Positions 19,334-37,509 of a DNA stretch of 38,458 nt are shown one piece after another (position 1 is the stretch's first letter; each line of letters begins with the position of its first letter). This DNA comes from Pseudobdellovibrionaceae bacterium. Lineage in GTDB: Bacteria > Bdellovibrionota > Bdellovibrionia > Bdellovibrionales > Bdellovibrionaceae. A program made the translations under genes and the position numbers. A model generated the notes under the pieces. That model was given only the letters and a program-made list of their open reading frames with translations, made no database searches and had not been told where the DNA came from. The stretch is taken from the NCBI GenBank assembly GCA_039810425.1, contig JBDHWW010000028.1, positions 1 through 38,458 on the forward strand, given 5' to 3'.

Positions 19334-19368
19334 GCTCGAGTGGCGAAATTGGTAGACGCACAGGACTT
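19334..19368 (+). tRNA. 5' exon of the host tRNA-Leu(UAA), separated from its intron and 3' exon
   Basis: GCTCGAG-TG-GCGAAATTGGTAGACGC-A-CAGGA-CTT; GCTCGAG pairs perfectly with CTCGAGC at 37499-37505 and CAGGA pairs with TCCTG at 37457-37461. Confidence 0.9.
19350..19368 (+). repeat. attL core
   Basis: TGGTAGACGCACAGGACTT, 18/19 identical to 37197-37215. Confidence 0.85.
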
Positions 19369-19402
19369 AAAACTTTTTTCGGGTATTGATTAAGTAGCGG
19401 AT

Positions 19403-19642
19403 ATGACTAATAAAACTGGACGAATGGTAGACCAAAAATCCCTCAAAAAGGTAGACCAATCTACCGATAAGATCGTAGATATGGCGACCTATCGTGAAGC
19501 AAAGATGCTTTATGAAATCGCCCAGCGTATAAACCCCACTCATACGAGAGAGGAAATCTACGAAGCGGTAGAGTTTTTTAAAGCGAATGAAACGAGAGCC
19601 AAAAGTTCCAGAAAATGCAGAGGTGTTTTTCACACTCATTAA
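19403..19642 (+). CDS. Small hypothetical protein overlapping the integrase start (possible excisionase/regulator)
   Basis: 79-aa ORF between attL and int; function inferred from position only. Confidence 0.35.
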   Translation: MTNKTGRMVDQKSLKKVDQSTDKIVDMATYREAKMLYEIAQRINPTHTREEIYEAVEFFKANETRAKSSRKCRGVFHTH

Positions 19643-20795
19643 GCCCACTCCTAACAAGGAAGGGCCGAATGCTCGCCGCTCGTTTTCGTTCATCATGGAC
19701 ATCCGCTTCGCCGATGGCCGACGCGATCAACCTCGCTACAAATTTCCTGATGGCGACGACCGACTCAAGGTCATAAATAAAGCCTACAAAATTGCCGACG
19801 ATAAAAACGAAGCCTTCGAGAAATGCCTCAAGCTCGCTTTGGATCTGCAAAAGAAGCTCTACATTGAGCACGGCCTTGAGAAAAAAACAGTCTTCAATCA
19901 AGAAAACTACGGCGTGCTCGACGAGTTTTTCGATTGGAAATATAGCGCGAAGAAAACGAAAGATAAAACCGCCGCGTACAATGATTTTCGCCGCGCAGTT
20001 GATGCTGTCGGTTCAATTCCGCTGCAAACCGCGACGAAGTCAGAAATCCAAAAAGCGATCTCCACCGCCGAAAATAATCAGCAGCGGAGAATTGCGAGCC
20101 GCTTGAATATGATCCTCAAGTATCTAAAGCGGGATATTGTTTTGGATAAGGACAAGAAAAAACGAGTTTCTGTTCGCTACTTGAACGAAAAAGAGTTCGG
20201 CTCGGTGATGAAACTCATCAAGGACGAAAATCTTCGCTTGGTTTTCGAGATGGCGTTTCATTCCGGCTGTCGTATGGGCGAAATTTTCGCCTTAACCGAA
20301 GCGGATTTTCGTGCAGGAGTGCTTACCGTCGATAAACAGATGCTCCGAACCGAAGAAGCTGTTCGTCGCCGAAGACAAGAGTATCAAGCCAAGGGAAAAA
20401 CTTGGACGAATTGGGTTCCAAAACCCAGCGATCTGATTTGCCCGACAAAAAACGAACAAAGCCGACGGGTTGTCGTTTTCGAGGAGTTCGCTTCTGCCTT
20501 TAAAAAATGGTGCGAGGTGGATGCCGAAACAAAATTTAAACTGCGGCATTCGCGGTTAGCCGAGATGTTGAGGACAGTTTGCGAGCAAAAGTTTCCGCAG
20601 GCTCCGCAAAAGCATTGTGTGGCTCACGATCTGCGCCACTCATTCGCCATTCGCTTGCTGCAATTCGTGAATCTTACCTACGTCAGCCTTCAACTTGGAA
20701 ACCGTATCGAGGTTTGCCAAGAGTTCTACACGGGCTATGAGTTGCACGATGAGAACATTACCGTTCTAAAATCGATGATGCGTAAGCAGGCATAA
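19587..20795 (+). CDS. Tyrosine recombinase/integrase
   Basis: HSGCRMGEI (R), TKN (K), HDLRHSFA (HxxR), LGN and C-terminal FY (Tyr nucleophile). Confidence 0.92.
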   Translation: MKREPKVPENAEVFFTLIKPTPNKEGPNARRSFSFIMDIRFADGRRDQPRYKFPDGDDRLKVINKAYKIADDKNEAFEKCLKLALDLQKKLYIEHGLEKKTVFNQENYGVLDEFFDWKYSAKKTKDKTAAYNDFRRAVDAVGSIPLQTATKSEIQKAISTAENNQQRRIASRLNMILKYLKRDIVLDKDKKKRVSVRYLNEKEFGSVMKLIKDENLRLVFEMAFHSGCRMGEIFALTEADFRAGVLTVDKQMLRTEEAVRRRRQEYQAKGKTWTNWVPKPSDLICPTKNEQSRRVVVFEEFASAFKKWCEVDAETKFKLRHSRLAEMLRTVCEQKFPQAPQKHCVAHDLRHSFAIRLLQFVNLTYVSLQLGNRIEVCQEFYTGYELHDENITVLKSMMRKQA

Positions 20796-20797
20796 AT

Positions 20798-20817
20798 CGT
20801 TACGGGCGCCCGTAACG
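20798..20817. repeat. Perfect 20-bp palindrome CGTTACGGGCGCCCGTAACG (copy 1 of an element-wide motif)
   Basis: Core TTACGGGCGCCCGTAA recurs at 31569-31584 (1 mismatch) and 34553-34568. Confidence 0.85.
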
Positions 20818-20880
20818 CGTCGATACTTCTTGAAAAGTCAAGAGTGTTCAGTTATGGTTTTTGAAAGTTATAAATGTTGT

Positions 20881-21238
20881 GCCCTCATGGTGAAATCGGT
20901 AGACACAAAGGACTTCGCAAGTATTTGAAATCATTAGTGATTTTTAAATATAAAAATTGGAGCCTCGCTTGGGAAACCTCACGAGTGGACGCAGGGATAA
21001 CGGTGAACGCTTCACTACTTCGGTAGATGCCAACACCGTGGGAACATCGAAAGAATTTTTTCGATGAGCGCCGTAGAGACTAGATACCTGCGCACCTAAA
21101 ACTCGCAAGAGTCACGGTGAAGATATAGTCCAGACCACAAACGAAACCGATTTATTCGGCGTAGGCGGCGAAAGTCGAAGTGGTAAGAAAATCCTTGCCC
21201 GTAAGGGAGTGCCAGTTCAAGTCTGGCTGGGGGCACCA
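20881..21238 (+). tRNA. Complete element-borne tRNA-Leu(UAA); exons 20881-20915 and 21188-21238
   Basis: Acceptor stem GCCCTCA/TGGGGGC followed by ACCA; anticodon stem AAGGA/TCCTT; spliced loop CTT|AAAA; long variable arm; T-arm GCCAG-TTCAAGT-CTGGC. Confidence 0.93.
20916..21187 (+). ncRNA. Group I self-splicing intron (trnL-UAA/IC3-like, 272 nt, no ORF)
   Basis: Inserted after the wobble U; IGS GAG (20960-20962); P3 CGCAGG/CCTGCG; core GTAGAGACTAGA and AAGATATAGTCC; terminal G. Confidence 0.9.
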
Positions 21239-21262
21239 AACTTTTTTCGGAGGGGATTTGTA

Positions 21263-22576
21263 TTGATAAACCAAAGCTTGCTGATCACTACTTTGGTTGT
21301 TCTATCGAGTCTCTGCTCTGCTGCCACCGCTTCCTCTCAAAAAATTTCGTTTAAAGAAGCAATTCAGATCGCAATTGATAAATCGCCTTCGCTCAGTACC
21401 TCACGAGTGGAGGTCGACCTGCGTGATCTCGAATACTCGAACTCATATTCTACATTCTTGCCGTCGCTGGATTTCAACACAACGCACGGCTTACGCGATA
21501 GTCGCCCGTCGATTTACAGCAATATATACGGCAGCGAACTGAATCTGCAATTGACCGAAAACCTTTACGACAACGGCATCAGCTTTACGAAGTATCAATC
21601 CGCAAAAATTCAGAAAGACATTGCCGATCTTAATTTTCGTAACGAACGAGACAAAATCGTTCTCGACGTCGGTGCCGAGTACATGCGCTACTCGTTGGCT
21701 AAGAGTTTGGCCGAGGTTCAAGAGCAGCAGTTCAATACCATCAACAAACAGTACAAGGCTGTCTCGAACCAATATCAACAAGGCGTAAAAACTCGTCGTG
21801 ATTATTTGCGCTTCAAAACCGAATTGCGGCGCGCCGAAATCGATCTTCAAACTTCGCAGATAACGACCGAAAAATCCCGAGTCGAGTTGATGCGGCTTTT
21901 GGGATTCGAGATGAATAGCCAGACTGAGCCGTTCGACTTCATTCCAATCGAAATCCAGATGGATTCAGTTGCGACTGTTCCTACCGTGGCTCCTGAATTA
22001 TCGCAGCACTTTCAGTATCGTATCGCAGACCTTCAGAAAAAGGTTTATGAGAACGACGTTTATATCGTTAAGCGTTCTTACTGGCCCGAATTATTTCTGA
22101 CTGCCGGAGCCACCTACCACACTGGCGACTATTTAGCGGACAACATTGGGCTCACGCAAAATGAGACCACGAGTTGGAATGCGTTATTGACCTTAAAGTT
22201 CAATCTTTGGGACTGGGGAATCCGCAGAAGAAATATCTCAATTGCCGAAGTTCGCAAGACCCAGGCTGAAAACACAATAGCCGCAGGCCTAAATACATTT
22301 TCTTCCGACAATAGAAAACTCATGCTCGACCTTCAGCAAAGCTCCAAAAACTTTTCGCTGGCGCGTGAGCTACTCGATTTAGAAACCACAACCTATAATT
22401 CTTTAGACTCCGAATACCGTAATGGTCGCGTTTCGTATTTGGATATTATCGTCGCGCTCCGTGATCTATTGAGCGCGAAAGTTCAGATGTACACGTCCTA
22501 CTATGATCTGAGAGGGCAGCTATTGAAGTATCGCTATCATGAAGGGAAGCTCTATGAATCTATCAACGAAAAATAA
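21263..22576 (+). CDS. TolC-family outer membrane protein
   Basis: TTG start after GGAGGGG; signal peptide; FLPSLD and YWPELFL repeats (ORF-track start at 21209 lies inside the tRNA). Confidence 0.88.
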   Translation: MINQSLLITTLVVLSSLCSAATASSQKISFKEAIQIAIDKSPSLSTSRVEVDLRDLEYSNSYSTFLPSLDFNTTHGLRDSRPSIYSNIYGSELNLQLTENLYDNGISFTKYQSAKIQKDIADLNFRNERDKIVLDVGAEYMRYSLAKSLAEVQEQQFNTINKQYKAVSNQYQQGVKTRRDYLRFKTELRRAEIDLQTSQITTEKSRVELMRLLGFEMNSQTEPFDFIPIEIQMDSVATVPTVAPELSQHFQYRIADLQKKVYENDVYIVKRSYWPELFLTAGATYHTGDYLADNIGLTQNETTSWNALLTLKFNLWDWGIRRRNISIAEVRKTQAENTIAAGLNTFSSDNRKLMLDLQQSSKNFSLARELLDLETTTYNSLDSEYRNGRVSYLDIIVALRDLLSAKVQMYTSYYDLRGQLLKYRYHEGKLYESINEK

Positions 22577-23435
22577 GCGGAACTTCTTGATCGCTTTTGC
22601 AGTGGTTTTGGTCCTCGCAATTGGTTTGTACCTGAAGTTAAAAGACTCCAACTCAAGCTCTGCCGAAAGAATCGGAAAAGTAGTACGCGAGGATTTGGTT
22701 CAGCGCGTGACAATTGCAGGAACGGTGGAGCCTGTTCGCACGACTATTGTCGCTGCCCCTTACGATGGTTATGTAAAAAAACTTTTCGTTAAGCAGGGAC
22801 AAAAGGTACAGGCTGGAGATCCCATCCTAAGCATCGCTCAATCGCTCCAAGCAGCGGAGAATGTTTTCCCAATTCGTGCTCCATTTACCGGAACAGTCAC
22901 GCAACTGATAAAAAATGAGGGGCAATTCGCAAAACAGAATGACCCCAAAGAATACATTATGCGCATCGATGATCTTACGAAAATGTATGTTAATGCGAAT
23001 GCGCCTGAAATTGACGTCGTGAAGATCAAACCGGAGTTTGAAGCGGTGATCAAAGTTTCCGCGATTCTTTCTCGAAACTACAAGGGAATCGTCAGGGATA
23101 TTTCTCAGGCGGCTACGCAAAAGGAGCAATGGGGTGGCCGCTCGCAGGTCGAGTATGTCGTGAAAATTGAAGTCACCGATGCGGATACCCAGCTCAAGCC
23201 TGGAATGAGTGCGGTCGTCGATATTATCACCAACAAAAAGGATGCCGTCCTCACCCTTGGTCATGAGTTCATTCAAAAGGAAAACGACAACTACTTTGTT
23301 ATTTTAAAAGACGGCTCCAAAAAGAATATCAAGGTCGGTCTGCAAAATGAGACCGCGTTTGAAATCACCGAAGGTCTGTCCGAAGGACAGGAAATCCAAC
23401 AGGTGGATTTCCTGAAGCTGATCGAGAAGCAATAA
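22554..23435 (+). CDS. MacA-like periplasmic adaptor (MFP)
   Basis: N-terminal TM; GYVKKLFVKQGQKVQAGD; IRAPFTGTV; LKPGMSA; short hairpin region. Confidence 0.88.
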   Translation: MNLSTKNKRNFLIAFAVVLVLAIGLYLKLKDSNSSSAERIGKVVREDLVQRVTIAGTVEPVRTTIVAAPYDGYVKKLFVKQGQKVQAGDPILSIAQSLQAAENVFPIRAPFTGTVTQLIKNEGQFAKQNDPKEYIMRIDDLTKMYVNANAPEIDVVKIKPEFEAVIKVSAILSRNYKGIVRDISQAATQKEQWGGRSQVEYVVKIEVTDADTQLKPGMSAVVDIITNKKDAVLTLGHEFIQKENDNYFVILKDGSKKNIKVGLQNETAFEITEGLSEGQEIQQVDFLKLIEKQ

Positions 23436-25487
23436 ATGAGTCTGATCAGTCTTAAGAACCTTAATTTTTCTTATAAGACGGCATCGGGCGAGATGGTGCC
23501 AGTCTTGAGAAACTTGAACCTCGATATCGAGGCTGGCGAACTTATCGCCATTCAAGGACCATCTGGATCAGGGAAATCGACTCTCCTCTACATTATCGGA
23601 TGCCTTCTTAGCTCGTATTCGGGACAAGTTAAAATTTCTGGTCAAGACGTTTCAAAGTTGAATGACGAACAGTTGGCAATTCTCCGCAATCGGCATATCG
23701 GATTTGTTTTCCAGCAATTCCATCTGCTTTCAAAAGCCACGGTGATTGAAAATATTCTTTTGCCAAGCAAGTACCCCTCGGAAATCCCAACTCACAAAGA
23801 TGCTAATCACCGTGCGGCGAAATTGGTCGAGGATTTAGGCTTACACGGCAGGACTCATCACTATCCCAATCAACTTTCTGGTGGCCAGCAACAACGGGTT
23901 TCAATAGCTCGTGCTCTACTAAACGATACACAGATAATTTTAGCTGACGAGCCGACCGGCAGTTTAGATACAAACAATTCAAAGCAGATCATGGAGCTTT
24001 TAAAAGCCGCGAATCGATCTGGCCGAACGGTCATCATCATTACTCACGATCCAGAAATCGCCCAGCAATGCAACAAGGTCGTTCACTTCCGCGACGGCGA
24101 AATCAAGGAAGTCGTCGAAAATAAAAAGCCGCAACAGCACATCGACTCCGAAGACGCTGCCGTAGAGATTTCTTCTTACAAAAAAATAGAGCCACCGAAA
24201 GGTCGTATCGCTATCTTAAATCGATATTTCCATGTTGGCAGAACGCTTTTCCCGCTCGCTTTTCAAAGTTTACGTCAGAACCGAACCCGTTCGATGCTGA
24301 CGATGCTTGGAATAGTGATTGGTGTGGCTGCGGTTTTATCGATGATTACTATCGGATCGTTTACCAAAAGAAAAATTTTGGACTCTTACGCCGAAATGGG
24401 CGTAAACACCGTCGTTTTTTACGGCTATCCGAATTGGGAATTGAAAGCCACCGATCAAGTATCCGCAGTATTTCAGAGCTTTGATTGGGATCGAGATTTA
24501 ATGCCGATTAAGAAAGTTTTCCCGGAAGTGATTCGCATCTCTCCGAGTCTTTATTCGTGGGATAACAAAGTCAGCTACGGCGGTAAAATTGTCGACAATG
24601 ATGTTAGAGCCTTCGGCGTTTCTTCAGATGGTCTTAGCATGGCAAATAGAGAGGTCATCTTAGGCAATAACTTTAGTCCGTTCCATGTCGAGTATCGCAG
24701 CGCGGTTTGCGTGATTGGCTACGATATTTATCAACGACTATTTACGAATATGTCGCCTCTCGGGCAGATCATTTCTGTTAGTCAGCGAGAATCATCATTC
24801 GGCTGTCGCGTGATCGGCGTACTGGCCTCGCAGACGAGCAACAAAGAATGGAACAAGCCGAACCTGCAGGTTTATTTACCTTACACGTTCTTCCAAGGCA
24901 CAAGCGATCCGTGGAACTCCAGAATCCGCGAAGTTTTACTTCAAGTTCAACAAGGAGCTGACGTTGAACAGGTCGGCAAAAAGGTAAAAGCTTTTTTCGA
25001 TATGAAGTATGGCAAGTCGGCCAGGTTCGTAGTTGGTTCCGACAGTGTGCTGATCGCGCAAATGAATAAGTTTTTGAGCTTGTTCACTATACTACTCGCC
25101 GCGATTGCTTTGGTTTCGCTTGGCGTAGGTGGGATCGGGATTACGAATATGATGCTGGTTTCAGTATCCGAAAGATTTAAGGAGATCGGTATTCGTAAAG
25201 CTTTCGGCGCGACCAATTTTAGCATCCGAGTTCAGTATTTAGTCGAATCGATTTTAATCTGTAGCATCGCGGGGGCAATCGGCCTGGTGCTCGGATTTAT
25301 TTTATATCAAGGCGCGATCTATGGTGCCACTAAGCTGGTTACTAAGCTCGCCTTTGAATGGACCGTCGATTTTTCAGCCCTTCTCTTGTCGGTCGTTTCT
25401 ATTTTTGTCGTCGGAGTTTTGAGCGGCCTCACCCCAGCGTTAAAGGCCGAAAAACTCCAGGTGATCGAGGCGCTCAGGAGCGAATAG
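23436..25487 (+). CDS. macB: MacB-family fused ABC ATPase/permease
   Basis: Walker [57 protein letters not shown]. Confidence 0.92.
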
Positions 25488-25513
25488 CTGAACTTCATCC
25501 AATTGAAGATTTA

Positions 25514-25924
25514 TTAACGCTTCCGACGCTTTCTAGTCGTTCGCTTGCTCTTTGATTTTTTCCGACGCTGTGGATTTTTAGATAGCTCTTTTTGAGAAGA
25601 ATCAGGAACAGCCCGGCCACCCATCGGAACGGTCGAGAGAACATTTGCCAGCGCGCCACTAAGATTCGGTGCAATCATTTGTGCTGCGTGTATCTTCATC
25701 GATTCGCCGACGAAATGGCCCACCTGAAACTCGATATCCAAAAGTTCCTGGATCAGTTGCGAAGTAGGCTTGCGGATATTTTTTAATACTTTCAAGGCGA
25801 GGCCACTCGCCAGCATCGTGTTGGTCAGGCGCTCTTGGATCTGCTCAAGCGTAAGAGAATCCGACCGGACTATTTCTTTGGATTTTTTTGTCGCCTTCGC
25901 TTTCTTTCGTTTAATCGTCGCCAT
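25514..25924 (-). CDS. Hypothetical protein with basic termini
   Basis: 136-aa ORF with RBS (GGAG), abutting the upstream ORF. Confidence 0.6.
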   Translation of the reverse strand: MATIKRKKAKATKKSKEIVRSDSLTLEQIQERLTNTMLASGLALKVLKNIRKPTSQLIQELLDIEFQVGHFVGESMKIHAAQMIAPNLSGALANVLSTVPMGGRAVPDSSQKELSKNPQRRKKSKSKRTTRKRRKR

Positions 25925-26155
25925 CTAAGCTCCCTTTTTTGCGGCTTGAATTTCTTGAGCCTCAATATCGCGGGCCACTTGCATAACGTCGTGGCGAATG
26001 CCCTTGAGAATGAGGCCCAAGCCGTACCAGAGATCAAGTTCGTCCAGCTCCATCAGTTGATCGTCTTGCTGGTTTTCGAGAAGGTGCTCCAATGATTTTA
26101 ATTTGAAGCAACACTCTCGGAGTTTCACATAATCGAGTTCTTTTCGTTTTCGCAT
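25925..26155 (-). CDS. Small hypothetical protein
   Basis: 76-aa ORF in a tightly packed minus-strand operon. Confidence 0.6.
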   Translation of the reverse strand: MRKRKELDYVKLRECCFKLKSLEHLLENQQDDQLMELDELDLWYGLGLILKGIRHDVMQVARDIEAQEIQAAKKGA

Positions 26156-26168
26156 ATCGTGACCAACC

Positions 26169-26969
26169 TTAGTGGTAGTACACGATGGCCGAATTAGCTT
26201 TGATCGTGATGAATCCGTTTGTTGTGCCGATTGGAGAGCTTGCTGAAAACTCGACCGCGTCCGACCGGAAATTATAAATACTTAAGCTGTTCATATAAAA
26301 TGGGTACTCCCAATAGCTACCGATGGCGGCGGTCGCGGCCATCGAAACCAGCGATAAATTGGTGTTGTCTAAGTTGCTGACGTTGAATAGTCCCAACGTC
26401 GTGGCAACTTCGGCTGGATCGGCGCTGATGATATTGTTTCCCGCAGAGAGATCCGCGCTCGGCATTGATCCCGAAAGTCGTTGCAGGGTTGAATAAAACA
26501 CTCCGCCCGCATTTGCGCAGTTTGTGGACGTCGACACATCCGGATTATTCGCCGGGGTCCATACTCCGCTCGCGCTCGTGCAGGCGCCATTCGTCGTGAT
26601 TTTGCAGGTCACCTGAACCGATCCCCCTGCCGCTACGCATGCCGCATCTGCCGACGAGCTACCGCTTGTCGCAAGAGCAAAGCTTTTGCCTCCGACGTTA
26701 CACACCACCGAGGCAGTGCCCGCACTACAAGTCGCCGAGCTGGTTTGGTTGCTCGGAGTTCCGTCGACGCTGCAACTCGCAGCTGTCCCGATGGTTGAGG
26801 TGCTAAAGCAGACGTTATTTGTCGATCCGTATGTAAGGCTACTAAACGTAGCACTTCCAGCAGGGCCGGTGCTTCCGCCGCCATTACCATTTCCGCCACC
26901 ACCGCTACCGCAAGCGGTGAGTATCGTCAGCATTCCGATTACCATCATTGTTTTGTTTGTCGTTTTCAT
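26169..26969 (-). CDS. Cys/Gly/Ser-rich lipoprotein
   Basis: ATG at 26969 after GGAGG; lipobox LTAC; Gly linker; multiple Cys. Confidence 0.75.
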   Translation of the reverse strand: MKTTNKTMMVIGMLTILTACGSGGGGNGNGGGSTGPAGSATFSSLTYGSTNNVCFSTSTIGTAASCSVDGTPSNQTSSATCSAGTASVVCNVGGKSFALATSGSSSADAACVAAGGSVQVTCKITTNGACTSASGVWTPANNPDVSTSTNCANAGGVFYSTLQRLSGSMPSADLSAGNNIISADPAEVATTLGLFNVSNLDNTNLSLVSMAATAAIGSYWEYPFYMNSLSIYNFRSDAVEFSASSPIGTTNGFITIKANSAIVYYH

Positions 26970-26973
26970 TTTC

Positions 26974-27306
26974 TTATCCTCCACTTTTGTTTCCGCCGTT
27001 GTTTTTTGGGGACACTCGGCGGATTGATATTTCATAAAGGCCGGTATGGATCTCGGTCTTGGAAATGAGGCTCTCCAAGTTGATGTGACTTTCCTCGCCG
27101 AACAGCAGGAAATTCACAGTCACGCCGAAAAACTGAGCCAACGCTTTAATGTGTTCGGGATTTCTTGGAAGTCGGCCAGAAAGTCCAACCCACTCGTGAA
27201 CGGTTTTGGAGGAAATAGAAATACGGCGTGCCAGTTCGTTGACCGCGATGCCGCGCTCTTTGCAGAGCTTTTCTAATCTTTGTCCAAACTCGTTCTTTTT
27301 TCCCAT
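26974..27306 (-). CDS. XRE/Cro-C1 family HTH regulator
   Basis: FGQRLEKLCKERGIAVNELARRISISSKTVHEW...LAQFFGVTVNFLLFG. Confidence 0.85.
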   Translation of the reverse strand: MGKKNEFGQRLEKLCKERGIAVNELARRISISSKTVHEWVGLSGRLPRNPEHIKALAQFFGVTVNFLLFGEESHINLESLISKTEIHTGLYEISIRRVSPKNNGGNKSGG

Positions 27307-27361
27307 CGTCCCTTATTCCACATTTATTTTATCGGTATTGTTTGGGCTTACTTAGTCCAAA

Positions 27362-27418: not shown

Positions 27419-27498
27419 TAGTCCCTTTTAAAGTCCCGCCTTATTGAGGTGGGTTTTATGGGGAACTGATTCAATTTTCGCTCGACTCGGCGTGTTGA

Positions 27499-27561: not shown

Positions 27562-27590
27562 GGCGTTATTATTGAGATAAAGGGGTTGTT

Positions 27591-29440: not shown

Positions 29441-29499
29441 AAAACATGGAGGGGTTCGATCCCGATCCGCTAAAGAAAGGGAAACGGACGGAGACCTAA

Positions 29500-29616
29500 T
29501 TACGGTCGCTCGTTTTCGTCAGCGCGTTTCTTTTTCTTATTGTCGCGGTCGGCGGATTCAGATCCGACGATTCCGCCAAAAATAAAAGCTACGATTAACC
29601 AATACCAGGCGATCAT
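29500..29616 (-). CDS. Very small membrane protein
   Basis: MIAWYWLIVAFIFGGIVG plus a basic tail; RBS GGGGG. Confidence 0.4.
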   Translation of the reverse strand: MIAWYWLIVAFIFGGIVGSESADRDNKKKKRADENERP

Positions 29617-29657
29617 AATCCCCCCATGCTCTAATTTTAAATGGATCTCATTTGGAC

Positions 29658-29861
29658 CTACGGCCAGTAGACATCGATGAGGCCGCAAAGCAACCACAAT
29701 AGGCCCGACACCGAGAGCATAGCCAAAGCTGGCGACCCACCCCCAAGCCAGAGCCAGAAAAGCCCACCAAGAGCGGTTACGGCGATATAATCGCCCAACA
29801 CCTCAAGAACCACGGTCTTCATTTTTCGCGGTCGGCCCACCGTCGGGTATTTCTTTTTCAT
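29658..29861 (-). CDS. Small two-TM membrane protein
   Basis: Basic N-terminus followed by two hydrophobic segments. Confidence 0.4.
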   Translation of the reverse strand: MKKKYPTVGRPRKMKTVVLEVLGDYIAVTALGGLFWLWLGGGSPALAMLSVSGLLWLLCGLIDVYWP

Positions 29862-29913
29862 ACCTGTTAAATGGAAACAGGCAGATCCATTTAGCAGGTA
29901 TGGAGGCAATTTT

Positions 29914-30327
29914 ATGGAAATCGAGCATCTAACAATTTTTATGCTGAATCGGAACGCCCTCAGCGATGTCGCGCTTCGGGTTCTTCTCTATATTCAAATC
30001 GCGCACAAGTTCGGCGGTAACGCGGAAAAACGAATCGTCTACATTAGTCGTCGTCGTATTTGTAAAAGGCTTTCGATCTCAATCGGTGCTTGCCGTTCGG
30101 CGGTCAAGCAGCTTGTGGATTTTGGATATATCCAGCTGACGGATTCAAAAGGAAATCCGGTCTCTGATTCTTCCAATTGGATGGTTCTAAATCCAAAAGA
30201 AAAACTGAACCACGAAAAAATTAGGAGTGTGATCACCTTGATTAACAAGGTGATCACAACAGCAGATAGGGGATCATCGGATGATCCGGGATCTGAGGGA
30301 TTATTCGATAATATTATGGAGGAGTAG
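29914..30327 (+). CDS. Winged-HTH protein (replication/regulatory)
   Basis: LSDVALRVLLYI...ISRRRICKRLSISIGACRSAVKQLVDFGYI; RBS GGAGG. Confidence 0.7.
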   Translation: MEIEHLTIFMLNRNALSDVALRVLLYIQIAHKFGGNAEKRIVYISRRRICKRLSISIGACRSAVKQLVDFGYIQLTDSKGNPVSDSSNWMVLNPKEKLNHEKIRSVITLINKVITTADRGSSDDPGSEGLFDNIMEE

Positions 30328-30481
30328 ATACATAAGTATATCCAGAATAATTATTCTGGATCGATGAATGGCGCACGGGTCAACAAGTGACCGTGGAGCA
30401 TTGAGAGATCCATTTAGTATTCAGAGTCACGGCTGATCGGTTTCGGTCGATGATTTTTAAAAACAAAAAAGGAGCGTTTTT

Positions 30482-30703
30482 ATGAGCTTAAAAGAAAAGA
30501 TTAACTATTATCCGTTCGTTGAACTACCTGATCCGAAGATTCGGTACCTGATTAGAAACTCGGAAAAAGAACCCATCGCGGTGCTTTGGTTCGATAACGA
30601 TGGGACGCCTAAAATCCGGTACCTCAAGCCAGTGACGCCGGATCTTGAGATACCCATTTTAGATTTTATGAACGAAAAGCAGCGGCTTTTGTTCGGGCGA
30701 TAA
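30482..30703 (+). CDS. Small hypothetical protein
   Basis: 73-aa ORF with RBS AAGGAG; internal repeat PKIRYL occurs twice. Confidence 0.6.
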   Translation: MSLKEKINYYPFVELPDPKIRYLIRNSEKEPIAVLWFDNDGTPKIRYLKPVTPDLEIPILDFMNEKQRLLFGR

Positions 30704-30714
30704 CCCTGTCGACG

Positions 30715-31296
30715 TTAGCTCGCAAGATGCTCTTTTTCTTCTTTGGCGCCTACCGCGAGGAAGCACCAGTTCACAAACTCGTCGTCAACCTCACGCATGA
30801 CGACCGGGAGAAATGGCATCTCGATCCATTGCTTTTCTTTGGCTTCCGACCATTGGCCTGTCGTCCGTTGATGATGGCGCCAGACCGCCATATTTGTTAG
30901 AAAACTGCGTGCGAGTTGGTAATCGTCCTTAGCATCTTGCGGTAGGAGATGCTGGTAACGATGAGGAAATAGCTCCTTCGCTGCAGCTTTGATTTTTTCA
31001 ATGTTCGGTTTTCTCGGAAACAACTCCTTGACGTGGAAATCGTGCCTCATCGGGTTGTAACCGTTCTTTTTAATGTCTAGTGCGCGGTAGCGCGTTTCAA
31101 TTTCGTGGTCCGAGAGATGGACGTAATGAATATGCGGCTTAATCCAGCTCTTCATCGCAAAACCGATGTGCTTGATTAACCCGACAACCAAAAAGGTCAC
31201 GCCGACCGTCACCTTTATCAACATCCATGCTCCGCAGACCATCGGAACTCCAACCAACAACAAGCCAGGAATGGCAATAAGTAATGCCGCTATCAT
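30715..31296 (-). CDS. Hypothetical membrane-anchored protein
   Basis: Long hydrophobic N-terminus; RBS GGAGG. Confidence 0.6.
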   Translation of the reverse strand: MIAALLIAIPGLLLVGVPMVCGAWMLIKVTVGVTFLVVGLIKHIGFAMKSWIKPHIHYVHLSDHEIETRYRALDIKKNGYNPMRHDFHVKELFPRKPNIEKIKAAAKELFPHRYQHLLPQDAKDDYQLARSFLTNMAVWRHHQRTTGQWSEAKEKQWIEMPFLPVVMREVDDEFVNWCFLAVGAKEEKEHLAS

Positions 31297-31379
31297 AAGA
31301 CCTCCGTTTCAAGCGCAGGCGATGGAGCCGAAACTCACAAGCGCCCATAAATCAATTTTTGCTCGATTCAATCCATTAG

Positions 31380-31442
31380 TCCATTAAAAAGTAGTGCCTT
31401 ATAAAGCATCGACTTAAAATGATATAGGATATAAGGGCATGT
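31380..31442 (+). repeat. 63-bp direct repeat, copy B
   Basis: Matches 27499-27561. Confidence 0.85.
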
Positions 31443-31510
31443 AAAGCTAAAGGGCCGCTTTAAAGCTGGCATAGAAATTGGCGGGAAATTGAATCAAGTG
31501 GCCGAAATAC

Positions 31511-31542
31511 AAAAAGAGCGACCCATAAAGGTCGCTCTTTTT
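31511..31542. terminator. Bidirectional Rho-independent terminator
   Basis: AAAAAGAGCGACC-CATAAA-GGTCGCTCTTTTT. Confidence 0.8.
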
Positions 31543-31596
31543 GTTCGTATTCATTTGCGTGTGGAACCTTACGGGCGCCCGCAACGTCACCGAAAC

Positions 31597-32451
31597 TTAT
31601 GATTTGTTGCGCTTAAGAAGTGGGTCGTTTCTTTTCGCGCGCACGTTGAACTTCCCATATTTCACGAGCAAGTTTGTATATTTCTTTGTTCCATTTTTAG
31701 TTGCCGCAGGGTTTGGCATTTTATCGGGTAATTTGTGGTTGCCAGTCAGGGCCGTAAGAGCCAGATATTCATTTCCGCAATCCATTGCTTGTTCTTCAAA
31801 CCGACTTCTTGACCGAATAATTGTGCCTGAATTGTATCGCGCAAAGAACGAAAGCTGAGCAATCAAATACTGATAAATCTGTCCAACCATTGCCTCACTT
31901 TCGTTCGGATATAGTTTACGCAGGTGCTGGAGCGTATTTTGGACCTCAAATATGGGATGAGGAAAGTCGGACCAATCCATCTCAATTTTCCAATCTACGA
32001 AATGCCACGTGCAATCGTCGTGTCTGCAGTTTTTTACTTCGCATCGTCCATCCTCTTTTTCATTTAAGAAAATTGTGTCGTCCTCTGAATTATAAAATAG
32101 CTGGATTCTTTTAATGCCTTCGTAATGCATATAAAGTTCTTTAATGAACCGTATTGGCGGACGACTTTTTGTTGCGACGTAGTAGCGGAGAAATAGACCA
32201 TCCTCTTCCATGCATCCCGCCGTATCATCGCTTTCATCAAACGGAAAAGATTCGGAACCATCCCAGAAAATATCCTTGAATAGCTCTAACTCTTTTTCGT
32301 CTTTAATGACTTGCGATGGAATTGGAAAAACGACGCTAAAATCCAGAAGCTAATTTTTTCCAATTTCAGTATTGGTCAGATTTTTAAAATTATTCTTGTG
32401 TGTTTCGTTGGAAAAATCGATTTCGATTCGGCTGTAATAAATAGTAGACAT
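31597..32451 (-). pseudogene. DUF1281/YubB-like gene with an in-frame TAG at codon 34
   Basis: ATG at 32451 with RBS AAGGA is in frame with ORF 31597-32211; single TAG at 32350-32352; motifs LDFSVVFPIP and ATKSRPP. Confidence 0.6.
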
Positions 32452-32520
32452 ATATATTCCTTTTGTTTTTTAGTTAAAAAATTGACGGGTCTTGCGCATT
32501 CGCAAGACCCGTCTGGATGG

Positions 32521-33831
32521 TTACTTAAAGACCGCAAGCCTTTGCAGAATTGCGCGCATTCTTTCGGTCAGCTTGGCGTGCCGTTCGTGGTCTTTAGCGG
32601 ATGGCTTTTTGCTCTTGATGATTTTCTTACTCAAGGCAATCAGTTCCGCTTTCACGCTCTCAAGTTCCATTTGTAGAGAAATAAAAACGGCGTCACCTGA
32701 TTTGTAGTCACGGGCTAATTTCTTGGTGCGGTTAATTCGTTCGTCCGCCATTCCAAAGTAGTGCTTATCAGCGTCCATTCCGATAAAACTACGTCCGTCC
32801 AACGCGCACGCTACGCCGGTGGAGCCGGAACCCATGAACGGGTCAATCACCACTTGGGCCGGGCCGCTCACCATTCTCACTAAATGTTGCATTAGGCGAA
32901 TTGGCTTGACGGTCAGGTGGAAGTTCTTGCCCTTGAGTTCCGTGCTCTTTACCTTTTCTGATTTTTTACGCGAAAAAGAGTCCTTTTTCTTTTTCGTAGG
33001 TTTGTATTTATCCAAACCAAAATCACGGTCAGAATCTCTTGGCTTTTCGTATTGGAGAAACGGACTCAACATTTCATCCAAAGACATAAACGGTGCGGAC
33101 AAGTAGTTCGCACTATTTTTTCCTACGGCGTGTAGCACCGCCGCCGAACCGTCCGTGATGATGTTCGTTGGGTAGCCGTCTTTGCCGTCAGCGCGCTGAA
33201 CTCTAATGGCACCAATGTTCAATGCGCCGGTTCCGTATTTCGCAACATTGGCACCAATGGTTTTTTCGGTCATTGGTTTTTGCGCAAGGATAATGTGTTC
33301 CGTTGCCGTTCGTAAGTCCGGTGCGTGGTCCATATATTGAGCCGAAAGCTTTTTAGAAAACTTTTGGCTCTTGGACGTTTTCATGTGCTTACCCACGTAG
33401 CCGCCTTTTTGCACGCCGCTTGAGTAAGTCCAAAAAAGAGTGTCCTTGATATGGAGTCCGGCTACTTGCATTCCAAGCACCATCAAGTGCGCATTTTTAT
33501 TCGGCGCAAACGAAACAACATGCGCGCCGGGTTTTAGAACTCTCATGAGTTCCTTAAAAAATTGCGGACCCGTGATGGTGTTGTCCCATTTTGCTTTATT
33601 GTAGCCACGCTTTCCAACTTGCACGTACTCTTGACCGTTCAAGTAGCATTGCATGAGTTTATCAATCTCTACCTTTTTATCGGTCAGTAGATACGGACCA
33701 TCAAAGACGGCGGCGTCCACTGATTCGTCAGGCAATCCTGATAAGAGCTTTTGCCATTTTCCGTTCAAGAGCTTGATGGTTGTTTTTTTCGGGAACGAAT
33801 AGGTCTTGGATTTCGGTTTAGGGGATTTCAT
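32521..33831 (-). CDS. Beta-class amino (N6-A/N4-C) DNA methyltransferase with a C-terminal coiled extension
   Basis: DESVDAAVFDGPY (motif IV variant), RVLKPG, HLTVKP and DPFMGSGSTG (motif I). Confidence 0.88.
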   Translation of the reverse strand: MKSPKPKSKTYSFPKKTTIKLLNGKWQKLLSGLPDESVDAAVFDGPYLLTDKKVEIDKLMQCYLNGQEYVQVGKRGYNKAKWDNTITGPQFFKELMRVLKPGAHVVSFAPNKNAHLMVLGMQVAGLHIKDTLFWTYSSGVQKGGYVGKHMKTSKSQKFSKKLSAQYMDHAPDLRTATEHIILAQKPMTEKTIGANVAKYGTGALNIGAIRVQRADGKDGYPTNIITDGSAAVLHAVGKNSANYLSAPFMSLDEMLSPFLQYEKPRDSDRDFGLDKYKPTKKKKDSFSRKKSEKVKSTELKGKNFHLTVKPIRLMQHLVRMVSGPAQVVIDPFMGSGSTGVACALDGRSFIGMDADKHYFGMADERINRTKKLARDYKSGDAVFISLQMELESVKAELIALSKKIIKSKKPSAKDHERHAKLTERMRAILQRLAVFK

Positions 33832-34643
33832 TGCGCACCCCCTTTGCGAACTTTCACGGTAACGGCATTTTTGTTCGCTACTTGCGTAAGATTTTTCTCA
33901 ATCCAAACGACCATTTCTTTTAGGAGCGCGCGTGAACCCTTATCCATTCCGCCTTTTTTGTTTGCGGCCTTGAATGAATGGAACGCCACTTTTAGTTCGG
34001 CGGTGGCGGTAGTTTTTCGTTCAGCCGCCGTGGCGAAAGTGCGCTTGCTTTTTTCGCTTTTCGGGTAGGCCAAGACGAAGTTTTTCTTCGTGTGCTTGGG
34101 GGCACGCTTTTTCGGATTATTTTTACGCGTGAGTGCCTTGATTTCGCGGTAGCTCAATTTCTTGAGCTTTGCTTTCGGGTGTGCGGCAAGGAATTGCTCA
34201 AGCGCGTTTTCGTTTAAACGCGCAATTTCAACGGACGCCGAAATTGGTAAGCCCAACGCAATGACCGCTTTGTTTTTGGCCACGGTAATGTATTCAGCCG
34301 CGCGCGGTGGCATGATGCCGAATTGTTTTTGGACCAATTCGTTAAATGCCTTGCGTGCTTTTTCGTCCACGTCGCGCTTATATTTTTTGTGCGCACTGAT
34401 TTCGATAACGCCCAAAAGCTTATGAAGCCCTTTGGCTAAACGTGCGTCTTGCTTTGCTTGAGAATTGAGAATGCTCTCAATCAAGTCCAAGCGGCGCTGA
34501 TAATTCTTAATCAGCGGTGCCGCTAAAAGTTCGTGGTCGAACTTTGTGGCCTTTACGGGCGCCCGTAAGAATGGGTTGTTGTTTTTAGTTTGAGCCGACT
34601 TTTTTGACCCCTGGCTCTTAGGATCTTGGTTATGCTTACGCAT
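33828..34643 (-). CDS. Basic DNA-binding protein, DUF3102-like HTH
   Basis: FNELVQKQFGIMPPRAAEYITVA...LSYREIK pattern; coupled to the MTase. Confidence 0.55.
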   Translation of the reverse strand: MRKHNQDPKSQGSKKSAQTKNNNPFLRAPVKATKFDHELLAAPLIKNYQRRLDLIESILNSQAKQDARLAKGLHKLLGVIEISAHKKYKRDVDEKARKAFNELVQKQFGIMPPRAAEYITVAKNKAVIALGLPISASVEIARLNENALEQFLAAHPKAKLKKLSYREIKALTRKNNPKKRAPKHTKKNFVLAYPKSEKSKRTFATAAERKTTATAELKVAFHSFKAANKKGGMDKGSRALLKEMVVWIEKNLTQVANKNAVTVKVRKGGAQ

Positions 34644-34704
34644 AGGTTCCTACTTTCTGGCCAGCGGTTGGTTAAACTCCGTGGCCAGAAGCAGAAAACG
34701 ACTG

Positions 34705-34738
34705 TTGATGTTGCGCTTAGTGCTGCAGCGATGCTGCA
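34705..34738 (-). repeat. 34-bp imperfect inverted repeat, left copy
   Basis: Reverse complement TGCAGCATCGCTGCAGCACTAAGCGCAACATCAA matches 37037-37070 at 29/34. Confidence 0.75.
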
Positions 34739-34833
34739 CGCGTAGGAAAGAGGGTAAAGCTCGCCCTCAAGCACGCGAAATTTAAATCATTTCGGTGCTT
34801 CTCAATTTGAGACTGGATGGAATTTGATGGGGA

Positions 34834-36972
34834 TTATCGTGCGCGTTTCGTAGGAGATTTTGAGCCTGATTTATCGGCCCTCGGAGAAACGCGGAGAGTT
34901 CTTTTGTTTTTTCCAACAGCGTCTTTTTCGGATTTCGCCACTGGTTTAGATTTTTCGTTTTTTGATCCGCTCTTTTTCTTCAGCGATTTTTGATCGTACT
35001 CAAGATTTAGCGCGTAGTAGATTTTGTCCTCGCGGTCAGCACCTTCATCTTTGAATCCATAAACGAATCCTTCGCTCCACGCAGGATGGCGACTAAACAC
35101 AGAACTTTCAATTCGCCACGTTTCGCCTTTTTTCTTGGAGTAAAGTTTGGCAAGCGCATCTTCTCGTTCTTTACCTTCGGGGTAGATGGCGCGAATGATG
35201 GTTTCTTTATCAACACCGCCATTGCCAGTATTGCTTTGGCTGGCTTCATAGAGAAGGCGAATAGTGGCTCGTTGTGGTCCTTTTTTGAATTCGAGAATTT
35301 TTCGATTTTCGTTTTTGGGATGATAAGCGGCACAGCCTTCCTCCATCAGATACTGACCGAAGATGCGCTTTCGCGTGTGGTCACGACTGCGAACCTGATG
35401 GGGATCGACGAAATATCCCTTTCGCCCCGAAAGTCTTTCGATGGCGCGCATATCTTCCAGTGCGTCGGCTAATTGTTTACGCCGTGCTTCGGAGGCTTGG
35501 TGTGCCGTCAGGATTCGCTCCCTCGCTGCGGATTCAATTTCTCGTCCGCGTTCGCGCGCGATGGCATAATTGAGAATTGTTTGATCAAGGTCAACGCCGG
35601 TTCCGCCCATGAAATACAAAGCTTGATAGTAGGTGCAAGAAGGTATTTTAAAAAGCTGAAGGTCATCATCGAAAATCTCACCGAAGAGAGGGTCAAGACT
35701 TTCTCGGACCTCGTTCATTGTGTGGCCACCAATATCTTGCGCAAATAAACTGAGGTTTCTAAAAATATCCAGACAAGGACTTGAATATGTCCATGAAAAC
35801 TTCTTGGATTTTTCTAAAGGCGGTCCAAAATAGTCGAGGCTTTTTCCTGCAAGGACATTGAGTTGATCAGGACTAAATTGCTCGACGAGCAGTATCCATA
35901 AATCATCCAGGAAGTTTTGTTCTAAGGTCGCATTTCGGCTTGATGCTCGTTTGCTAATTGCAGTCGTAAAAAGCGCATAACCTTTTTTGATAAAGCTAAA
36001 AATACTCTCGCGCAGTTCAGTTTCTTTTCGCTGAAACGGGGCACTCATTTTTAGTTCGTGGATTTTTTCTTCAAGTTCCGCGTCGTTGGATAAAATCCGA
36101 AGATCCGAAACAAAACCGCCATCACGTTCTCGGGCGGCATACCAAAGTTTTCGACCAAGGCTCGTGTTCTTTATCTCTTTTAGACGATCAATCACAGGGC
36201 GAACCTCCAGCCCGTCGGCACCAACCTCAATGGGTGGTGCCGTAATTGTTCCTGTCGTTTTCGACGGCGCAGAAAAAATTGAATCAATGGCCGCGTCCAT
36301 CGCTTGAGCAGGGATGCGAGTCCCTTTGGGCACCGATTTTAATTCACCTAAAATCAGTTGAACGGAGGAAAGTGCCGGACGCTTGATAACATCCGGCGCG
36401 ACAGCCATTTCCTTGTCGAGCGGAACGGGTTTGGGCTCGGGACCACCGAAGGTGTGACAAAGCCATTCGCTCTCGGGAAATGGTTTAGTCATGTGCCCGT
36501 TGCGGAGAAAATCTTCTCGCTCAGAATCAAGGTAGCTACCGAACTTTGAGAGGATGCTTTCATTTCCAGACGCGTATTCTAATTCACTTAAGCGTTGCAG
36601 CGGCAGAGGAGAACGGAGAATAGACCTGAAATCATCCTCTCTCCATTGCAGCACGTTCAGCCGTTCGGTTTGGATGGCTCCATCTTTATCGGAAAAAATC
36701 TCAATCACATCATCGGGATAAGTTGATTCCAAAGCCTCAAGTAGGTTCGGACGAAACCATTGCAGCAGTTCCGCGCCGTCGCAAACGCGGTCGGATTCCG
36801 ATTCCCATATCGGTTCCAGCGGAATCGTAGCGATGAGGACTTGCTCAACCCAATCCGCATCCATTTCGTAATGTTCAGCTAATTCCTTCGCCCAGGCGTG
36901 AAGCACAATCGCTTCCGCATCCGTAGGCTTACGGTCGCCGTAAAGCCATCTCTTTTTTCCCATTCCATTCAA
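34834..36972 (-). CDS. Large hypothetical protein with a C-terminal winged-HTH-like domain
   Basis: 712-aa ORF; C-terminal QRATIRLLYEA...VFSRHPAW...YYALNL pattern and a basic tail. Confidence 0.7.
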   Translation of the reverse strand: MNGMGKKRWLYGDRKPTDAEAIVLHAWAKELAEHYEMDADWVEQVLIATIPLEPIWESESDRVCDGAELLQWFRPNLLEALESTYPDDVIEIFSDKDGAIQTERLNVLQWREDDFRSILRSPLPLQRLSELEYASGNESILSKFGSYLDSEREDFLRNGHMTKPFPESEWLCHTFGGPEPKPVPLDKEMAVAPDVIKRPALSSVQLILGELKSVPKGTRIPAQAMDAAIDSIFSAPSKTTGTITAPPIEVGADGLEVRPVIDRLKEIKNTSLGRKLWYAARERDGGFVSDLRILSNDAELEEKIHELKMSAPFQRKETELRESIFSFIKKGYALFTTAISKRASSRNATLEQNFLDDLWILLVEQFSPDQLNVLAGKSLDYFGPPLEKSKKFSWTYSSPCLDIFRNLSLFAQDIGGHTMNEVRESLDPLFGEIFDDDLQLFKIPSCTYYQALYFMGGTGVDLDQTILNYAIARERGREIESAARERILTAHQASEARRKQLADALEDMRAIERLSGRKGYFVDPHQVRSRDHTRKRIFGQYLMEEGCAAYHPKNENRKILEFKKGPQRATIRLLYEASQSNTGNGGVDKETIIRAIYPEGKEREDALAKLYSKKKGETWRIESSVFSRHPAWSEGFVYGFKDEGADREDKIYYALNLEYDQKSLKKKSGSKNEKSKPVAKSEKDAVGKNKRTLRVSPRADKSGSKSPTKRAR

Positions 36973-37036
36973 GTCTAACGGACTTTCTTAAATCGGGCAA
37001 AGACCTCTAACCACTGGGGTTTTTCGTCCAGTTCAT

Positions 37037-37070
37037 TGCAGCATCGGTGCAGCACGAGCCGCACCATCAA
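37037..37070 (+). repeat. 34-bp imperfect inverted repeat, right copy
   Basis: TGCAGCATCGGTGCAGCACGAGCCGCACCATCAA. Confidence 0.75.
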
Positions 37071-37196
37071 GCTTCATATTCTAACCCCATAACAGCCGCC
37101 GGACTCCGGCGGTCCCGCCCAAACCGTGAACCCAAAACCAAACCTCCGCTATCGGCGTTTTTCGCCGCAGCGCCCCCTTTTTGCCCAATTCAAAAA

Positions 37197-37215
37197 TGGT
37201 AGACGCACGGGACTT
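37197..37215 (+). repeat. attR core (partial tRNA 5' exon lacking the acceptor strand)
   Basis: TGGTAGACGCACGGGACTT; the upstream sequence cannot pair with CTCGAGC. Confidence 0.85.
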
Positions 37216-37452
37216 TAAGATGAACGACGAAAGAGATCGTTCTAATTTGAGCCTTACTAGGGAAACTTAGTAAGTGGATTTGGGGATACCGGTGAAACCT
37301 TTCAACTGGCAACACCGTGGGAACATCAGACCGCAAGGCAGGATGGACGCCGTAGAGACTAGATACCCAAACACCTAAGACGAAAGTTATGGTGAAGATA
37401 TAGTCCAGACCACGAACGCTGATAAAGCGGCGATGAAAATCGAAGTGGTAAG
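37216..37452 (+). ncRNA. Group I intron of the host tRNA-Leu(UAA) (237 nt, no ORF)
   Basis: IGS TTTGAG; P2 CTTACTAGG-GAAA-CTTAGTAAG; P3 TTTGGG/CCCAAA; GTAGAGACTAGA; AAGATATAGTCC; terminal G. Confidence 0.9.
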
Positions 37453-37509
37453 AAAATCCTGGGCTTCCTTTACAGGGGCGTGCCGGTTCAATTCCGGCCT
37501 CGAGCACCA
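37453..37509 (+). tRNA. 3' exon of the host tRNA-Leu(UAA)
   Basis: AAAA-TCCTG, long variable arm, GCCGG-TTCAATT-CCGGC, CTCGAGC-ACCA. Confidence 0.9.

Follow-up and report, generated by a model that had tools for sequence, protein, structure and literature searches.

How does a cell keep decoding UUA when its transfer RNA (tRNA) gene for that codon lies in two pieces, neither of them a tRNA? The question is raised by contig C28 (JBDHWW010000028.1) of a Pseudobdellovibrionaceae bacterium, in which the halves of a tRNA-Leu(UAA) gene flank a 17,847-bp island that carries a complete tRNA-Leu(UAA) gene of its own, both genes being interrupted by group I introns. The stretch analysed, called the window below, is the whole contig (38,458 bp) and belongs to a metagenome bin, assembly G000 (149 contigs, 3.54 Mb, 49% G+C (GC)). 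Coordinates are window positions on the forward strand (features in Table 1), and G and L codes denote comparison genomes and loci.

A split host gene and its intron-bearing replacement

When segments 19334-19368 and 37216-37509 were joined by script (329 nt), they yielded a 92-nt tRNA-Leu(UAA) interrupted between positions 34 and 35 by a group I intron of 237 nt; all seven acceptor pairs are Watson-Crick and the anticodon stem is CAGGA/TCCTG. ARAGORN found no tRNA at the left junction (19250-19800) or at the right junction (37000-37600), so the split gene that the original prediction described was confirmed. The halves are separated by 17,847 bp bounded by direct repeats, 19350-19368 and 37197-37215, which are identical at 18 of 19 positions and whose ends coincide with the 5' splice site; when extended (19346-19371 versus 37193-37218) they match at 23 of 26. 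Beyond this core the left attachment site (attL) continues AAAACTTTTTTCGGG... and holds no tRNA 3' half. G023 has an intronless tRNA to which the host exons are 100% identical, and positions 19285-19372 are 91% identical to the G005 region upstream of and into its intact, intronless tRNA-Leu(UAA).

The complete gene within the island begins 85 bp past the integrase stop codon, and its intron likewise sits between anticodon positions 34 and 35. It is the sole call in the window by ARAGORN with introns allowed; default mode reports no tRNA there. Across the 149 contigs the intron mode gave 31 calls, two of them tRNA-Leu(UAA): the island gene and an intronless gene on C121. This 3.2-kb contig has 70% GC against 49% for the genome and looks like bin contamination. 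About 45 small contigs of 58-74% GC (within C86-C148, C121 among them) look like contamination from another organism. Intron-mode calls on C53 and C146 were set aside as false-looking, and loose matches to the anticodon-loop pattern (e.g., on C35) as chance matches inside coding sequence. There is no contiguous anticodon loop in the window, and the only other exact match in G000, on C35, is inside coding sequence. ARAGORN and the anticodon-loop pattern, applied to all contigs, gave no further tRNA-Leu(UAA) of native GC, which leaves the island gene as the only one on native-GC contigs. In ZAP7, G405 and G166 (described below) no intact intronless copy was seen either. An identical 16-nt stretch occurs at 19267-19282, 52 nt upstream of the split host tRNA, and at 20859-20874, 7 nt upstream of the island tRNA; it is found neither in the G005 leader nor in the sister elements, and chance or a small transfer are both possible.

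TTA codons are used in the window as had been anticipated, at 76 of 5823 host codons (13 per 1000) and 62 of 4623 island codons. Under standard wobble rules UUA is read by the UAA anticodon only, and the island tRNA is therefore probably indispensable while the island is integrated. Judging from sequence, we consider it likely that this tRNA is expressed, splices and is needed in the integrated state. The alternative that it is the rebuilt host gene of a classical island was rejected: it is preceded by the integrase gene, and the true halves of the host gene are found on either side of the element.

The arrangement is very probably that of a break-and-replace integrative island which sits in the anticodon loop of the host gene and brings its own intron-bearing tRNA-Leu(UAA). 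In the mechanism we propose, the island would work with a tyrosine integrase, a small upstream open reading frame (ORF), a repressor-like switch, a replication-initiator-like gene, a methylase and efflux cargo. Its attachment site (attP) would carry only the stretch from the D-loop to the anticodon loop and no 3' half, so that integration would destroy the gene at both junctions. The island tRNA-Leu(UAA), which would need group I self-splicing, would then supply UUA decoding, and precise excision would presumably restore the intron-bearing host gene. The original prediction, of an element with an integrase that breaks tRNA-Leu(UAA), restores it at neither junction and brings a complete replacement, held in each of these parts.

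Similar tRNA and intron copies that were wrongly joined during assembly could give the same picture without a true interruption of the host gene, and the 149-contig bin does include contaminant contigs. A second assembler's contigs from the likely source run span both junctions with zero differences: one corresponds to 19100-21193 (depth 14.7) and another to 21165-37545 (depth 17.5), the right flank having a depth of 15.4. That these contigs break at 21165-21193, within sequence common to both intron-tRNA copies, speaks for an artefact; that each junction lies inside a single contig at even depth speaks against one, with the reservation that the second assembly was built from the same reads and is not independent data. 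Moreover, the left junction, the integrase-tRNA order and the right arm recur in element L049, and the order from tRNA to efflux genes recurs in G405 on a 2.4-Mb contig. We saw no false join at either junction, the hazard that the original prediction had pointed out, and we regard an assembly artefact as very improbable. Contigs of the small-share runs X2, X3 and X5 contained only tRNA-sized pieces from other organisms.

Several observations nevertheless weigh against a break-and-replace island as described, or narrow it. An intron at the right attachment site (attR) is found in the window only, at one of five junctions (the window, ZAP7, G284 and G002 twice), which is odd if a contiguous loop is needed. 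With the whole Rfam Intron_gpI model the host intron scores 32.6 bits (E 1e-4) and the island intron 24.4 bits (E 0.029), both below the gathering score of 50, at which nothing is found in the window; self-splicing of both is a prediction from sequence. Neither a 19368>37216 joint nor an attP circle joint was present among the source-run contigs, which drop rare forms. For the right flank (37510-38458), at the end of which lies a dispersed repeat, five relatives offer no counterpart, and reconstruction of the empty site is therefore impossible there. The 31 tRNA calls are an incomplete set, and a second tRNA-Leu(UAA) may be unassembled. Comparison of 13 island proteins with PHROGs gave matches only for the integrase, two repressor-like proteins, the replication-initiator-like protein and the methylase, and no structural genes. 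The element does not qualify as a temperate phage; although it operates in the manner of the phage system described below, integrative island is the better name, and lysogeny in the strict sense is unsupported.

Related elements and known systems

The same design was observed in sister elements and in unrelated ones. The scan of a genome collection gave one close relative, L049 (record titled MAG, i.e., metagenome-assembled genome, Bdellovibrio sp. ZAP7; genome G290), from another family of the same phylum. Its 4.4-kb element has the same left end, the integrase gene (int), a tRNA-Leu(UAA) whose intron measures 238 nt, and a right arm that is 94% identical to window 36847-37218; the integrase region is 82% identical, and the integrase itself 83% overall (best segment 90%). 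The host tRNA-Leu(UAA) of ZAP7 is intronless and also split: attL ends ...GGACTTAAAA and then reads CTTTTGG, while in attR a 27-bp repeat leads into TCCTGGG..., which continues to the 3' end and supplies an acceptor strand matching the 5' half. On L052, a metagenome contig, we found the same attL and an integrase 89% identical to its window counterpart; the tRNA there has a 225-nt intron, and part of the window cargo is present, without the efflux genes. The left end, integrase, tRNA and right end of the window island are thus homologous to those of the L049 and L052 elements, and the expected linkage of integrase homologues to an intron-bearing tRNA-Leu(UAA) was found in all three close cases (window, L049, L052).

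To find broken genes regardless of introns, we searched for 5' halves that end in ...GGACTTAAAA and are followed by a base other than T. Such halves occur in 4 of 182 family genomes and 5 of 401 phylum-sample genomes, G000 being counted in both and the G290 match being the ZAP7 record. In G166 the broken half lies at a locus syntenic with the intact gene of G160; 130 bp on there is an intact intron-bearing tRNA-Leu(UAA), followed by a 326-aa (amino acid) integrase (27% identical to that of the window) and a transposase. This gene provides, in a relative, the contiguous GCTCGAG...intron...CTCGAGCACCA arrangement that the original prediction looked for. G002, of the window's genus, has a broken half and, after 107 bp, an intact tRNA with a 263-nt intron at the contig end. 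Another G002 contig (C84; L102) holds two orphan tRNA-Leu(UAA) 3' halves of attR type, 1.3 kb apart and each with a core of about 10 nt, which suggests repeated integrations at one site. In G405 the broken half is followed by an integrase (28% identical), a tRNA whose intron is 208 nt long and then efflux genes; its attR was not found within 40 kb or genome-wide by pattern. G284 combines a broken half and an integrase with an intronless replacement tRNA, whose anticodon stem is unlike that of the target and which retains GGACTTAAAA; its attR (24-nt core, matching 3' half) was located on a different contig. In G043 the contig with the broken half is too short for a visible replacement. Counting window, ZAP7 and L052 as one lineage, the replacement bears an intron in four of the five lineages in which one is visible, and in G166, G002 and G405 the exons around the loop equal the target, so that the intron is the sole local difference.

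The original prediction explained break-and-replace by the position of the 3' half beyond an intron. This explanation is not supported, because L049 and L052 break intronless targets at the same position and G002 and G284 break intronless targets as well. Break-and-replace is therefore the element's habit and not a consequence of the target's intron.

Nor is the principle new, as had been implied. Under the name tRNA-dependent lysogeny it has been described for actinobacteriophages (Fionnbharth, cluster L; Guerrero-Bustamante and Hatfull, 2024, PMC10865867). According to the available part of that paper, the phage system has in common with the island a tyrosine integrase, an attB at the anticodon loop of a single-copy tRNA gene, a short common core, junctions neither of which rebuilds the tRNA, and an element tRNA of the same anticodon that compensates. 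The island differs in its host (a Bdellovibrio-type phylum), in its target (Leu-UAA instead of Lys-UUU), in having no visible virion genes, and in that a group I intron interrupts the replacement tRNA at the recombination loop and a further intron lies in the target. The common core is 19-27 bp, extending 5'-ward, in the sister elements, versus about 10 bp in the phages, and the tRNA requirement, which was established there by genetics, is for the island our inference. The discussion of the paper reports that secondary sites retaining only CTT at the left of the core are tolerated, and the portion at hand makes no mention of introns in replacement tRNAs. It also cites prophage Lj965 of Lactobacillus johnsonii, which does not rebuild the tRNA on integration and encodes the cognate tRNA, as the island does; no intron is reported in that citation.

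Classical tRNA-targeting islands resemble the element of the window in their tyrosine integrase beside a tRNA gene, tRNA-derived direct repeats and anticodon-loop exchange. A classification of tRNA-targeting integration was reportedly given by Williams in 2002. In the classical islands the identity block reaches the tRNA 3' end, whereas here it runs 5' of the loop, so no functional tRNA results at attL or attR; the element is not a classical tRNA-restoring island. An example of the classical scheme, with an attP that carries the tRNA 3' part, is phage Boilgate (PMC10865867, section 5).

For the introns themselves the closest description is that of the Leu.3Ug introns of bacterial tRNA-Leu(UAA) (Williams, 2020, preprint 10.1101/2020.01.27.920355). 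As far as the accessible text of the preprint goes, these are inserted between U34 and A35 (CUU/.../AAAA), are preceded by U at the 5' splice site and end in G, measure about 200-270 nt, lack an ORF and contain the core motifs GUAGAGACUAGA and AUAGUCC; the introns studied here are alike in all these respects, but reside in replacement genes carried by elements and in a gene that an element has destroyed. The same text draws no link between introns and integration sites, and its Leu.3Cg class fits the tRNA-Leu(CAA) introns mentioned below. In the literature we searched, which leaves most subscription journals outside, neither an intron-bearing replacement tRNA nor integration into an intron-bearing tRNA was described. 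The principle being known, what is new here is the intron-bearing spare and, uniquely among the cases seen, the intron-bearing target.

Introns in the target and in the replacements

Both window introns are flanked as gactt-intron-aaaat and terminate in ...GGTAAG, with U at -1 and G last as in Leu.3Ug. Introns of relatives' intact tRNA-Leu genes score 30.3-48.3 bits with the same Rfam model (six of seven loci at E <= 0.01), and 13 of 49 predicted pairs have compensatory changes among five introns, a small and related sample. Between the island intron and those of the sister elements identity is 90-91%. The host intron is 91% identical to the intron of the element-borne tRNA of G166, 68-75% to the sister-island introns (68% to that of the resident island), and 54-62% to those of G098, G002, G113 and the tRNA-Leu(CAA) genes. 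As a clade, the window, ZAP7, L052 and G166 introns share 56-64% with the G002 and G098 types; the 208-nt intron of G405 is G098-like by eye and stands outside the identity matrix. By sequence, then, the chromosomal target, together with its intron, belongs to an allele type that elements carry as well. The proposal that such elements spread ORF-less group I introns can be upheld in part: the target intron does fall within the clade of element-borne introns.

Intron-bearing tRNA-Leu(UAA) genes were found in 5 of 182 family genomes: G000, G002, G098 and G113 by splice-junction pattern and G166 by intron similarity. The pattern matched 13 of the 182 genomes, and 11 of the places were tRNA-Leu(CAA) genes. 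The contiguous intronless anticodon stem-loop CAGGACTTAAAATCCTG is present in 152 of the 182 genomes and absent from G000; because of shared ancestry, these counts are a contrast and not a test. Further introns were seen in passing. G575 has a related intron in an intact gene, G422:C99 (L104) holds a relic in which the 3' part of an island-clade intron and the tRNA-Leu(UAA) 3' exon abut coding sequence, and G187:C116 (L043) a decayed intron-bearing tRNA-Leu(CAA) copy. Within G000 itself, C36:3290-4972 (L024/L048) contains a tRNA-Leu(CAA) interrupted after C34 by a group I intron of 269 nt, in agreement with Leu.3Cg. A paralogous integrase (25% identical to that of the window, 41% to that of G166) follows directly, and integrases of this type follow 5 of 12 intron-bearing tRNA-Leu(CAA) loci in the family. 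No broken tRNA-Leu(CAA) 5' half was seen in G000.

Did the target hold its intron when the island integrated? We lean toward thinking that it did. The genus orthologues in G005 and G001 are intronless, and of nine relatives' loci compared seven are intact intronless genes; a target that was intronless at integration could have received the 237-nt intron later, in its orphaned right half, by recombination or conversion with a G166-type element-borne tRNA-Leu(UAA). Four of the five attR junctions are indeed intronless and keep contiguous GGACTTAAAA; the attR fragment preserves the whole anticodon stem-loop, a possible target for other elements, and the two attR-type halves of G002, 1.3 kb apart, point to serial events. 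With the intron present, furthermore, the repeats share just 6 bp (GGACTT) to the right of their A/G mismatch. Against late arrival, one intact gene of G166 combines the 5' exon seen at attL, where it follows the chromosomal leader, with the intron seen at attR (35 of 35 positions and 91% identity, respectively), and the window halves pair perfectly; each of these observations favours one intron-bearing gene that was there beforehand. The intron has neither an ORF nor a homing endonuclease, and at 68% identity to the intron of the resident island it does not come from the current island. If the intron was there, we infer that strand exchange took place in GGACTT, the stretch that runs from the A/G mismatch to the splice site; the tolerance of the phage system for secondary sites with only CTT at the left of the core (PMC10865867, discussion) makes an exchange so confined plausible. 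Late entry of the intron thus seems to us unlikely, and an intron-bearing target at the time of integration is the reading we favour.

For the introns in the replacement tRNAs, we consider it about evenly balanced whether they are passengers without a role, the elements having captured tRNA-Leu(UAA) alleles in which an intron was present by chance. A group I intron at this position belongs to a classical and widespread class (Leu.3Ug; preprint 10.1101/2020.01.27.920355). The G284 replacement is intronless and still has GGACTTAAAA, and the window island lies in or next to an intron-bearing site with no obvious block to the integrase. Less easily explained by passengers is that an intron-blind search returned intron-bearing replacements in four of five lineages, with at least two distinct intron clades, against a background of 152 of 182 family genomes with the intronless stem-loop and 5 of 182 with the intron-bearing form (kin are not independent, and this is a contrast only), and that in G166, G002 and G405 the intron is all that distinguishes the exons around the loop from the target. 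A more tentative idea, to which we give the lesser chance, is that group I introns in the anticodon loop shield attachment sites where elements compete for tRNA-Leu(UAA). An element that destroys the gene could keep a spare stably only if the spare were no target; an intron that splits GGACTT|AAAA would remove the target and leave the mature tRNA unchanged, and chromosomal genes would pick up such introns from elements. The window would then be a breach, in which the island recombined at the exon-intron boundary of a shielded gene. A shielding role fits four of the five lineages and is weakened by G284 and by the window itself; if true, ORF-less tRNA introns would gain a vehicle for horizontal spread.

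Island cargo, flanks and implications

The coordinates of the island, its contents and the host gene are collected in Table 1.

Table 1. Features of the split tRNA-Leu(UAA) locus and of the integrative island
Feature	Position	Strand	Basis or remark
Leader/promoter region of split tRNA-Leu(UAA), chromosomal	19285..19333	+	G005 comparison
5' exon of split host tRNA-Leu(UAA); attL	19334..19368	+	perfect tRNA on joining to 37216-37509
Left direct-repeat copy, common core, D-loop to U34	19350..19368	+	18/19 versus 37197-37215
Integrative island, 17,847 bp, 46.5% GC (left flank 51.3%)	19369..37215	+	bounded by repeats and tRNA halves
Small ORF, 79 aa, overlaps integrase start	19403..19642	+	same frame kept in L049, L052
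Tyrosine integrase, 402 aa	19587..20795	+	PF00589, PHROG 1
Promoter-like site TTGAAA-17-TATGGT before island tRNA	20830..20858	+	consensus scan only
Island tRNA-Leu(UAA)	exons 20881-20915, 21188-21238; 272-nt group I intron 20916-21187	+	ARAGORN, introns allowed
Efflux cargo: outer-membrane factor, HlyD-type adaptor, MacB-type ABC pump	21209..25487	+	Pfam OEP, HlyD_D23/HlyD_3, ABC_tran + MacB_PCD + FtsX
Divergent Cro/CI-type helix-turn-helix (HTH) regulators	26974-27306, 27591-27881	-, +	Pfam HTH_26/HTH_31; PHROG repressor families
HTH_36 proteins including replication-initiator-like winged helix (29914-30327)	28198..30327	+	Pfam, PHROG
N6/N4 DNA methyltransferase	32521..33831	-	PF01555, PHROG 67
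712-aa protein adjoining right end	34834..36972	-	N-terminal 106 aa 45% identical to L049 ORF
Conserved right arm, closes with right repeat 37197-37215 (attR)	36847..37215	+	94% to L049 13798-14169
237-nt group I intron of split host gene	37216..37452	+	Rfam Intron_gpI 32.6 bits, E 1e-4
3' exon of split host tRNA-Leu(UAA), CCA encoded	37453..37509	+	joins with 5' exon

The integrase scores 27.5 bits with Pfam Phage_integrase (PF00589; cutoff 27.1) and matches PHROG 1 integrase at E 1.8e-26; its motifs HSGCRMGE, HDLRHSFAIRLL and EFYTGY, of the RHR-Y type, are common to its homologues, and no PDB sequence match was found. GGTAGAC repeats to the right of attL were considered as arm-type sites and dropped, as they fall in the conserved small ORF as Val-Asp codons. 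Upstream of their tRNA, L049 and L052 also have the -35-like part of the promoter-like site that precedes the island tRNA. The first efflux gene has an uncertain start, its ORF opening within the island tRNA; the efflux genes are 73-83% identical in aa sequence to the genes just after the tRNA in the G405 element, and the HTH_36 region is 70-83% identical to that of L052. For the 712-aa protein there was no Pfam, PHROG or Atlas match. Neither a relative of the integrase nor an exact copy of the 5' exon of the island tRNA turned up in viral_contigs. The intergenic stretches 27471-27561 and 31352-31442, one of them beside the divergent HTH pair, form a 91-nt direct repeat (80% identical); the two copies are possibly shared operator or promoter regions. 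A GC-rich palindrome of the TTACGGGCGCCCGTAA type is present in four copies after island genes (20800-20817, 29310-29327, 31569-31586 and 34553-34570), and also after int in L049 and L052.

The left flank is syntenic with G005, of the same genus (window 8553-19135 at 82-83% identity). The orthologous tRNA-Leu(UAA) of G005 is intact and intronless, but inverted and 6.5 kb away, and with left-flank synteny only G005 was rejected as a clean empty site. At this locus (L030, G005:C2, 10912-17600) the tRNA-Leu(UAA) with its leader is inverted relative to the window, and 6.5 kb of unrelated genes separate the two from a conserved AcrB block; judged from this comparison, the tRNA-Leu(UAA) locus is rearranged between species of one genus. 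The tRNA flanks of G001 and G023 share no genes with the window. On the right, a 124-aa ORF has no match in five relatives and looks spurious. The last 76-80 bp of the contig (38379-38458) recur with 99-100% identity at the ends of C1, C5, C29, C35 and C37, and this dispersed repeat probably broke the assembly there. Further left, positions 2839-9765 encode a protein of 2308 aa with about ten Invasin_D3 repeats and Big_1, filamin, fn3 and NHL repeats, probably a giant surface adhesin.

For annotation, the locus means that tRNA finders run in default mode miss both the replacement and the split gene, and genomes of this kind then appear to lack tRNA-Leu(UAA). One nucleotide position of this one tRNA is a point of convergence for at least five integrase or junction lineages. 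Break-and-replace is extended from actinobacteriophages to integrative islands of a phylum of predatory bacteria, and a classical self-splicing intron is tied to mobile elements, which offers a testable reason for the position of the intron. How tRNA-Leu introns move between genomes is an old question in the cyanobacterial trnL literature, and elements of this kind may give the ORF-less introns a concrete route.

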